A stretch of DNA of 64,000 bases from an uncultured Thermotogaceae bacterium (GTDB taxonomy: Bacteria; Thermotogota; Thermotogae; MWEM01): assembly GCA_964462525.1 (NCBI GenBank), contig CAYWWY010000007.1:19963-83962 (forward strand). Direction: 5' to 3'. The notes under the pieces were generated by a model. The model ran no database searches, was not told the DNA's origin, and saw only the letters and a list, made by a program, of their open reading frames with translations. This document shows, one piece after another, positions 34,898-35,261 of this stretch. The position numbers and the translations under genes were made by a program. Numbering within the stretch: position 1 is the stretch's first letter; each line of letters opens with the position of its first letter.

Positions 34898-34934
34898 AAA
34901 AAAACCCTCAACTTTTTGATTGGTTGAGGGTTTT
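34898..34934. terminator. Bidirectional Rho-independent terminator
   Basis: AAAACCCTCAAC-loop-GTTGAGGGTTTT flanked by A and T runs, between convergent units. Confidence 0.8.
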
Positions 34935-34966
34935 CTAAGAGGTCAAAGATTTGCGACTGAATTGAC

Positions 34967-35068
34967 TCATGCTCTATATCCTAATTCGAAGGATCGGTCG
35001 TATATGTCGTCATAAATCTCTTCCAACCTCCGAGGTTTCTTTAATAACAAGGATTTCTTATACACCAT
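34967..35068 (-). CDS. 33-aa small protein MVYKKSLLLKKPRRLEEIYDDIYDRSFELGYRA (not in ORF track)
   Basis: Perfect AAGGAGGTGA RBS, ATG start, TGA stop; C-terminus shared with the neighbouring small ORF. Confidence 0.75.
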   Translation of the reverse strand: MVYKKSLLLKKPRRLEEIYDDIYDRSFELGYRA

Positions 35069-35095
35069 GGTGCTCACCTCCTTTTTCATGGGTCT

Positions 35096-35197
35096 CTACG
35101 CTCGGAATCCCAGTGTGTAGACGTTGATAAAACTCTCTCTTTGGACCTTCTCTACTCTGTGGCTCATCTCGGCTGCGCTCACGGTTCGTTTCTTCAT
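35096..35197 (-). CDS. 33-aa small protein MKKRTVSAAEMSHRVEKVQRESFINVYTLGFRA (not in ORF track)
   Basis: Perfect AAGGAGGTGA RBS, ATG start, TAG stop; directly downstream of a promoter. Confidence 0.75.
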   Translation of the reverse strand: MKKRTVSAAEMSHRVEKVQRESFINVYTLGFRA

Positions 35198-35230
35198 TGT
35201 GTTCACCTCCTTTTTTTGATTTTCACTGAT

Positions 35231-35261
35231 ATTGTACCCTATGAGCTTTGCTCCCTGTCAA
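35231..35261 (-). promoter_or_regulatory. Sigma70-type promoter with 19-bp spacer for the small-peptide operon
   Basis: TTGACA-N19-TACAAT; spacer contains the dyad GAGC-AAA-GCTC. Confidence 0.6.

Follow-up and report, generated by a model that had tools for sequence, protein, structure and literature searches.

A putative multicopy family of small basic proteins in a few lineages of Thermotogota

Prochlorosin precursors are dispersed precursors of ribosomally made, post-translationally modified peptides (RiPPs) that are served by a single enzyme. Leaderless bacteriocins are listed in Table 2 of PMC6131525 as peptides of 27–34 amino acids (aa) with isoelectric points (pI) of 9.9–11 and charges of +2 to +5, encoded by 3–4 tandem genes. 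Operons of the phenol-soluble modulins (PSMs) are bound directly by AgrA and the PSM peptides are exported by Pmt, as described in PMC5080381. Described here is a two-gene unit that encodes two small peptides, A and B, in an uncultured Thermotogaceae bacterium. The stretch of DNA analyzed (the window, 64,000 nucleotides (nt)) consists of positions 19963–83962 of contig C7 of genome G000, whose assembly is 2.56 Mb in 32 contigs and 95% complete. G001 is a sister species, and both are placed in genus g1. To judge from its sequence, the unit belongs to an undescribed multicopy small-protein family that is found only in a few Thermotogota lineages.

The family resembles the PSM/Pmt system in having leaderless, short and putatively helical peptides, tandem paralogues in several dispersed operons, a narrow lineage and a promoter that is seemingly activator-dependent. 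An ABC-2-type transporter encoded elsewhere would be the counterpart of Pmt, but it is a core gene that is also present in G003, a genome without the peptides. The cassette peptides differ from PSMs in their much higher charge and hydrophilicity and in a narrow heptad seam; they have no Pfam match at E-values up to 10 and so do not belong to the staphylococcal PSM families, export is here only proposed, and the host is a diderm Thermotogota bacterium. The leaderless bacteriocins aureocin A70, garvicin KS and the cereucins, as far as the tabulated examples go, share with the cassette 2–6 tandem genes, unprocessed peptides of ~30–35 residues, a pI around 10 and a net positive charge. Unlike these bacteriocins, the cassette peptides have a negative and not a positive grand average of hydropathy (GRAVY), no transporter or immunity gene adjoins the g1 cassettes, and a link to an ABC-2 operon is seen only in genus g27. 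The conserved motifs SASE[IM]xR and DRSFELG, also unlike leaderless bacteriocins, would point to a specific protein partner. RiPP families that are modified in trans, e.g., the prochlorosins, have in common with the cassette many scattered small paralogous genes with a conserved N-terminal part and differing C-terminal parts, but here a maturase that co-occurs with the peptides was not identified, the C-termini are conserved from one species to the next and Cys is almost absent.

Two small genes under purifying selection

The unit lies in the gap past a GNAT gene. Direct reading of the sequence gives two open reading frames (ORFs) of 33 codons on the minus strand, each behind the same Shine-Dalgarno sequence and the second followed by a terminator, in agreement with the initial annotation (Table 1). 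The distance from GGAGG to ATG is 8 nt in both genes. The sequence AAGGAGGTG is the usual strong ribosome-binding site of G000, with 53 sites, 39 of which have a start codon 3–9 nt further on. Peptide B carries the DRSFELGYRA tail and is of the B-type; peptide A is a member of the A-family with a B-like tail.

Genome G001, the only other species of the genus available for comparison, keeps the unit at the same place beside the same GNAT gene. Peptide A has one conservative replacement and four synonymous changes between G000 and G001, and peptide B has four replacements and four synonymous changes. The ratio of nonsynonymous to synonymous change (dN/dS) is 0.07 for A and 0.26 for B, compared with 0.22 for the adjoining GNAT gene. 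Across the paralogous copies described below, the shared ending Leu-Gly-aromatic/Leu-Arg/Lys-Ala is written with differing synonymous codons and is followed by TAG, TGA and TAA stops, which marks it as a protein-level signature. Purifying selection on the B-type C-terminal motif, DRSFELG[LYF][KR]A, is strong: dN/dS is 0.12–0.14, and synonymous changes are many. Both ORFs are real, conserved genes under purifying selection, and the unit is a genuine small-protein operon that had escaped annotation, as first proposed.

The C-terminal halves of both genes (54 and 51 nt) are identical in nucleotide sequence between G000 and G001, whereas the N-terminal halves, the intergenic spacer and the neighboring gene have diverged normally. 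There are no synonymous differences in 21.7 sites of the C-terminal halves and eight in 19.4 sites of the N-terminal halves. At the rate of the GNAT gene (proportion of synonymous differences, pS, of 0.37) approximately eight would be expected in the C-terminal halves. This invariance could be accounted for by cis-acting ribosome-arrest or leader peptides, or by a dual-function RNA, i.e., by C-terminal codons that act in the ribosome or as RNA. Compared with shuffled sequences, the mRNA has a somewhat better fold (z = -2.2), and a family member in genus g27 is directly upstream of, and coupled to, a transporter gene, both of which fit such a role. It is nevertheless considered very improbable. 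The terminator comes directly after peptide B and leaves no gene to be regulated, a downstream gene being present only for the g27 member, and the B-type C-terminal half has many synonymous changes in the other cassettes (pS 0.70). RNA structure is also not convincing as the cause, with one compensatory pair among 81 predicted pairs, and in a search of the unit against Rfam nothing reached the gathering score, the three sub-threshold matches all being to the opposite strand.

The promoter hexamers TTGACA and TACAAT named in the initial annotation are present, but they are 19 nt apart and not 16–18 nt; the usual spacer in this genome is 17 nt. TTGACA-19 nt-TACAAT is found three times in G000, in every case at an intact cassette, compared with 34 sites of TTGACA-N17-TAnAAT. 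A consensus scanner listed neither the promoter nor the terminator, because the spacer is 19 nt and the terminator loop 10 nt. Approximately 21 nt upstream of the -35 hexamer is a box, TTTACnnAAnnGTWAC, which also occurs three times in the 2.56-Mb genome, all at the three intact cassettes, and which is kept in the G001 copies. Because the promoter spacer is 19 nt, transcription probably requires an activator at this TTTAC-N6-GTTAC box. Control of the long spacer by a MerR-type regulator was considered and set aside, as no conserved palindrome is seen by eye in the spacers.

Directly upstream of the cassette, in a stretch of DNA whose alignment with G001 is 82% identical, there is an ORF of 75 aa, which has no Pfam or NCBIfam match.

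Table 1. Positions of the cassette, its copies and other features discussed. Plain numbers are window positions.
Feature	Position	Strand	Remarks
Whole conserved cassette unit, upstream box to terminator	34898–35322	-	Aligned block common to G001
Upstream box TTTACTCAATTGTTAC	35284–35299	-	TTAC direct repeat with 11-nt period; conserved; candidate activator site, putative function
Promoter-like TTGACA, 19-nt spacer, TACAAT	35231–35261	-	TTGACA 35261–35256; TACAAT 35236–35231
Shine-Dalgarno AAGGAGGTGA of peptide A	35203–35212	-	Unchanged in G001
Peptide A gene, 33 aa + TAG	35096–35197	-	ATG 35197; TAG 35098–35096; MKKRTVSAAEMSHRVEKVQRESFINVYTLGFRA
Shine-Dalgarno AAGGAGGTGA of peptide B	35074–35083	-	Unchanged in G001
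Peptide B gene, 33 aa + TGA	34967–35068	-	ATG 35068; TGA 34969–34967; MVYKKSLLLKKPRRLEEIYDDIYDRSFELGYRA
Intrinsic terminator	34898–34934	-	From folding; 14-bp stem, 10-nt loop, T-run; faces convergent GNAT gene
GNAT gene adjoining the unit	33915–34829		Pfam Acetyltransf_1
ORF of 75 aa	35472–35699	-	
GGDEF-domain gene	36539–39070	-	Called from motifs in translation
Intact G000 copy	C7 (window)		Divergent copy
Intact G000 copy	C8:25315–25664		
Intact G000 copy	C9:92359–92779		
Decayed G000 copy C8b	C8:28526–28716		A gene lost; B gene with Gly to Glu in motif
Decayed G000 copy	C15:24252–24415		B gene frameshifted
Decayed G000 copy	C6:1967–2069		3' fragment, stop in motif
Extra DNA at cassette on G001 C10	L033:1419–2747		
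GGDEF genes near g26 arrays	L130:4342–4956; L097:1471–2085		By Pfam
Radical SAM fragments, G054 C84	L096:1204–1930		Two ORF fragments
Radical SAM/SPASM gene, G000 C11	L139:5685–8444		
Radical SAM/SPASM gene, G000 C1	L140:6052–7293		At contig end
ATPase and DUF4276 genes, G000 C11	L139:3645–5479		
Core ABC-2 transporter in G000	C3, ~95.3–96.9 kb		
ABC-2 operon leader in G000	C3, ~94.9–95.3 kb (L143:249–670)		
Other ABC-2 leaders	L104:1474–2110; L141 and L142:221–667; L145:343–687		

Cassette copies in genus g1 and relatives in other genera

A genome-wide scan for frames ending in G[FYW][RK]A found ten, three of which are related. DNA and profile searches then define a two-gene cassette of ~410 nt with six copies in G000, three intact and three decayed, such that the initial account of the window pair was incomplete. 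From ~35322 downwards the window unit aligns with the cassettes on C8 and C9 and with one on G001 C17. A further motif match, at C9:84631, is not a cassette. The C8 and C9 copies encode an A-type peptide of 36 aa, e.g., MSNKALKKNRTKSASEMMRTMDDLKTGYLNHLYVGQ, and a B-type peptide of 30–31 aa, e.g., MKIFQRKEKRQVEVQIEKGFIDRSFELGLRA. The other A-type copies end in ...LY[VIL][GS]Q and do not have LG[FY]RA, which does not support the earlier view of the free C-terminus as the active part of the family.

In genome G001 the copies on C10, C17 and C24 are intact, and there are fragments besides. Comparison of flanks shows that the C9 copy of G000 corresponds to a contig-end fragment on G001 C5, and that one flank of the decayed C8b copy matches a flank of the intact G001 C17 copy. 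These correspondences of intact and decayed copies between species indicate that the cassettes turn over. On G001 C10, ~1.3 kb of extra DNA separates the cassette promoter from the upstream conserved genes, compared with 145 nt in G000. The neighboring genes are different at every G000 copy (GH65, LRR, ThiF, CobW, GyrI-like, FGE-sulfatase, DeoR, ATPase_2/DUF234 and GNAT), and the idea of a shared neighbor was abandoned in view of these heterogeneous contexts. No transporter, immunity or enzyme gene adjoins any G000 cassette, and the initial statement that the window locus has no adjoining enzyme or transporter holds.

A dispersed multicopy cassette with its own promoter and terminator could be a selfish or addiction-type element, similar to a toxin-antitoxin pair, that spreads and decays and in which one peptide counters the other. 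The three decayed copies would be in keeping with this, one of them (C15) having a 191-nt deletion at the orthologous site in G001 and another (C8b) being intact in G001 at an apparently orthologous locus, as judged from the one shared downstream flank. The peptides themselves do not fit, as both are basic and hydrophilic, with no membrane toxin and no acidic antitoxin, and neither has a Pfam or NCBIfam match. Terminal repeats are not seen in the alignment of the cassette ends, although no dedicated repeat search was made; there is no transposase among the flanking ORFs scanned, and a consensus scan found no antisense promoter. An addiction element is considered quite improbable.

The likeness of the C-termini of A and B that was first noted in the window is significant. 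Over the last 20 residues the BLASTP E-value is 5e-4 as a single comparison; two of 5000 shuffles attain the Smith-Waterman score of 34, and none of 5000 the end-anchored score of 22 for the last eight residues. The likeness holds for this pair, but homology is not shown at the level of the family, where A and B types give an hhalign probability of 0.2%. The typical-B profile scores 1.2 bits on window A, a value reached by 292 of 2000 shuffles, and a comparison of typical A with typical B is not significant (score reached by 2813 of 5000 shuffles). The tail of window A may be ancestral, or a B-like tail may have been acquired. The tails of distant A-family members (...GFRV, ...GFNMR and ...GFNLK) favor an old, recurrent tail.

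Profiles were searched against 151 Thermotogota genomes. The B-type profiles have convincing matches only in G000 and G001, although 21 genomes have some match at E-values up to 0.1; five weak matches inspected outside g1, g26 and g27 are inside long ORFs or have no motif, and a match on G126 C1 is not a family member. The A-family has convincing matches in five genomes, plus two genomes of genus g27 that were accepted after a shuffle test. The A-type profile found G054, of genus g26 in another family, and a rebuilt profile found all three g26 genomes. There the genes form arrays of 4–6 tandem ORFs of 31–35 aa, e.g., MKKRFKSAVEIQKSVDKVKDFRSYSSVVSIF, MKRRSRKSASEMERSLRNLKNNVLLKSQGFRV and MFRRRKSASEIDRSMARMKNELLIKNHGFNMR, each with its own ribosome-binding site, with one promoter and one terminator per array. 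G052 and G053 have a four-gene array that matches the G054 array position for position. The g26 arrays adjoin MFS and ABC genes.

In the family core, a basic run leads into K-[ST]-A-[SAV]-E-[IM]-x-[RK]-x-[ILMV]-x-x-[ILVF]-K; alignment A7 omits one array ORF without this motif. The earlier proposal of selection on the C-terminal end is borne out for the B-type motif, but the element conserved most widely is the basic N-terminus with the SA[SA]E[IM] heptad helix and not the free C-terminus. A tail of Gly, an aromatic residue or Leu, and a basic residue does recur in distant members, e.g., ...QGFRV and ...HGFNMR, and the C-termini of array members are conserved position by position between species.

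Adjacency to a GNAT gene, which holds for the window unit and, at a distance of ~1.6 kb, for one G054 array, was judged to be coincidental. A GGDEF-domain gene is 1–2 kb from the peptide genes in the window, and GGDEF genes are also found 1–2 kb from g26 arrays, which may be coincidence.

An improved-profile, word-indexed search of 5.8 billion proteins gave 208 candidates, among which 19 proteins are family members, all of g1- or g26-type; one is from a record named Kosmotogales bacterium, and another is a read-through artefact. The public protein P0002, of 75 aa, is a read-through of two adjacent array genes with stops read as Trp, i.e., a gene-calling artefact and not a fusion. From 1.84 billion representative proteins, an hmmsearch with the four window-type peptides recovered peptide A and nothing else, and the ESM Atlas holds peptide A letter for letter with no usable neighbor. 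A match to a characterized small-protein family was sought in Pfam, NCBIfam, PDB and Rfam and none was found: Pfam and NCBIfam gave nothing credible for the two peptides, nor did Pfam for 15 family members, and a PDB profile search gave chance matches only, with E-values of 0.17 or higher. A scan of viral contigs found 30 pattern stretches, none of them confirmed. A metagenome scan found seven loci, all 99.98–100% identical to G000 contigs and so adding no diversity. The nine sequencing runs listed are all of DNA, labeled sludge or activated-sludge metagenomes, with no RNA run among them. Literature searches turned up nothing on such peptides in Thermotogota, though a print record elsewhere is possible.

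Predicted helices and possible roles of the peptides

Properties were calculated for 25 listed peptides, one of which is an N-terminally extended ORF version. All have a pI of 9.2–12 and a net charge of +2 to +8, and GRAVY is negative in 24 of them (-0.15 to -1.12). No 15-residue window is above a Kyte-Doolittle mean of 0.83, and no peptide of the 25 has a hydrophobic stretch fit for a signal peptide or a membrane helix. A single Cys is found, in one peptide. In the A-family, the hydrophobic columns 14, 17, 21, 24 and 28 of alignment A7 have the 3-4-3-4 spacing of a narrow heptad seam. AlphaFold2 models each peptide as a single long helix preceded by a disordered, basic tail at the N-terminus. 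The predicted helix consists of residues 8–32 in peptide A (mean predicted local distance difference test score, pLDDT, of 77, with 15 sequences in the alignment) and residues 15–32 in peptide B (mean pLDDT 72.5, seven sequences); residues 1–7 of peptide A (MKKRTVS) are outside the helix.

The reading favored here, tentatively and at somewhat less than even odds, is of coiled-coil microproteins that pair in the cytoplasm and bind a macromolecular partner. The locus would produce two leaderless cationic microproteins of ~33 residues, each a single helix. The family genes appear always to be co-transcribed sets of paralogues, pairs in g1 and arrays of 4–6 genes in g26, and the paralogues (A with B) may associate in the cytoplasm as a short coiled coil or a bundle of helices. 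Such a bundle could dock on its partner by way of the basic N-tails and the free Gly-aromatic-Arg/Lys-Ala tails, and would then act as a stoichiometric regulator. Among candidate partners, evidence of any kind exists for the core ABC-2 transporter alone, namely the coupling in g27 described below. None of the roles first suggested for the pair (signal precursor, degron decoy, ribosome binder or RiPP) could be confirmed.

Several points weigh against the coiled-coil reading. AlphaFold2 helices of 33-residue peptides based on 7–15 sequences are weak evidence, and as A and B are both basic there is no simple charge pairing. The missing synonymous change in both C-terminal halves is left unexplained by a coiled coil. 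The patchy distribution and the three decayed copies would better fit dispensable accessory or conflict genes than core regulators. The ABC-2 link comes from one genus, g27, and in every genome examined there are unrelated small ORFs upstream of the ABC-2 transporter, such that the g27 member could be a leader peptide or cargo.

The g27 member, ORF4 (MLNRNSRILSCTEIEKNMEDYKRKVMNHWTIHHIIGR), scores 20.3 bits against the family profile, a value reached by none of 2000 shuffles; three other small ORFs at the locus are not significant against the profile. In both g27 genomes (G057 and G058) its last codons form the Shine-Dalgarno sequence of an ABC-2 ATPase gene, which begins 6 nt further on. The g27 member is, from this arrangement, translationally coupled to the core ABC-2 transporter. 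The ABC-2 permease is 79–82% identical in G000, G001, G003, G052 and G053.

The ABC-2 operon itself starts with several unrelated, fast-diverging small ORFs of 21–49 aa in six genomes (G000, G003, G052, G053, G057 and G058). In the three genomes whose leader DNA was examined (G000, G057 and G058) the first leader ORF is followed by a terminator-like hairpin. In g26 the three leader ORFs are paralogues with a C-terminal [IV]SDF..Y..Q[KR] motif. The G000 leader has no Rfam match.

The same coupling can be read in terms of export. The peptides would then be leaderless and amphipathic, like PSMs or multi-peptide leaderless bacteriocins, and act on membranes, surfaces or competitors; the dispersed paralogous operons would be switched on by an activator of the response-regulator type, and the transporter would be encoded elsewhere, the core ABC-2 transporter on G000 C3 being the candidate. 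The operon design, size (30–36 aa), pI and charge match the values in Table 2 of PMC6131525, and AgrA-bound PSM operons with Pmt as exporter (PMC5080381) offer a precedent. A member in one operon with an ABC-2 transporter in g27, arrays beside MFS and ABC genes in g26, a patchy distribution with gene decay that is typical of competition genes, and an over-long spacer with a direct-repeat box that fits an activator-dependent promoter are all consistent with export. The composition of the peptides argues against it: the GRAVY values given above for 24 of the 25 compare with mostly +0.4 to +0.7 for aureocin A70 and garvicin KS as listed in PMC6131525, and the hydrophobic face is a narrow heptad seam and not a broad membrane face. 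No transporter or immunity gene is found at any g1 cassette, and the identity of 79–82% in peptide-less G003 would suggest that the ABC-2 transporter is not dedicated to the peptides. Export is a possible but somewhat unlikely function.

A RiPP precursor modified in trans would have the basic helical N-terminal part as leader and the variable C-terminal 10–14 residues, rich in Phe, Tyr, Asn, Arg and Lys, as core. Across tandem paralogues the motif at the N-terminus is kept and the C-termini differ, which would fit such a division. G000 has six radical S-adenosylmethionine (SAM)/SPASM genes, four of them below the cut-off of every named family, and two of these four (L134 and L135) are found only in g1 among five genomes tested; upstream of one array of G054 are fragments with weak matches, far below family cut-offs, to a B12-type radical SAM gene. 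But no maturase adjoins any intact cassette or array, and the two radical SAM enzymes specific to g1 are without an orthologue in g26, which has the peptides, and without a PqqD/RRE domain by Pfam. The other two unassigned radical SAM enzymes have orthologues in G003 and G007, which are without peptides. The C-termini are conserved by position between species and are not hypervariable, and with one Cys in 25 peptides the residue is almost absent. A RiPP precursor is considered improbable, and the toxin-antitoxin-like and arrest-peptide or RNA explanations are less likely still.

Some observations on radical SAM and nearby genes are recorded here (Table 1). Directly upstream of an array of four peptide genes on G054 C84 are two ORF fragments that look like a broken gene; their matches are to the middle and the C-terminal part of B12-type radical SAM enzymes. 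Two paralogous radical SAM/SPASM genes of G000, on C11 and at a contig end of C1, have orthologues only in the sister species among five genomes tested. One of the two is in an operon with two SAM methyltransferases, and the other is beside oligopeptide ABC ATPases and a solute-binding protein. Also on C11, an AAA_21/AAA_15 ATPase gene followed by a DUF4276 gene looks like an anti-phage defense module.

A role in encapsulin cargo-loading, suggested by a motif resemblance, was rejected because neither G000 nor G001, each 95% complete, contains PF04454, whereas G052, G053 and the Thermotoga maritima control do. Genus g26 thus has a family-1 encapsulin gene (G052 C83 and G053 C9) and genus g1 does not.

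Meaning for the Thermotogota

Microproteins of ~33 residues mostly escape annotation; in this case an entire family emerged from uncultured Thermotogota of anaerobic sludge, with conserved motifs, its own promoter architecture, and clear gene birth and decay. Peptides this short can be made synthetically and are concrete, cheap targets. Should they be cytoplasmic helper peptides, the family would be of modest interest.

A broader arrangement, in which Thermotogota have a peptide system around the core ABC-2 transporter, with dispersed activator-controlled operons for leaderless, cationic coiled-coil microproteins, the A/B cassette among them, as cargo or regulators, is thought distinctly unlikely. 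If true, it would be a PSM/Pmt-like system of peptide secretion or signaling that current annotation does not reveal, in a deep-branching diderm phylum. Were the peptides to act as a pair that regulates a transporter, or to be exported by one, they would represent the first small-peptide effector system for the phylum, as far as the literature searches indicate.

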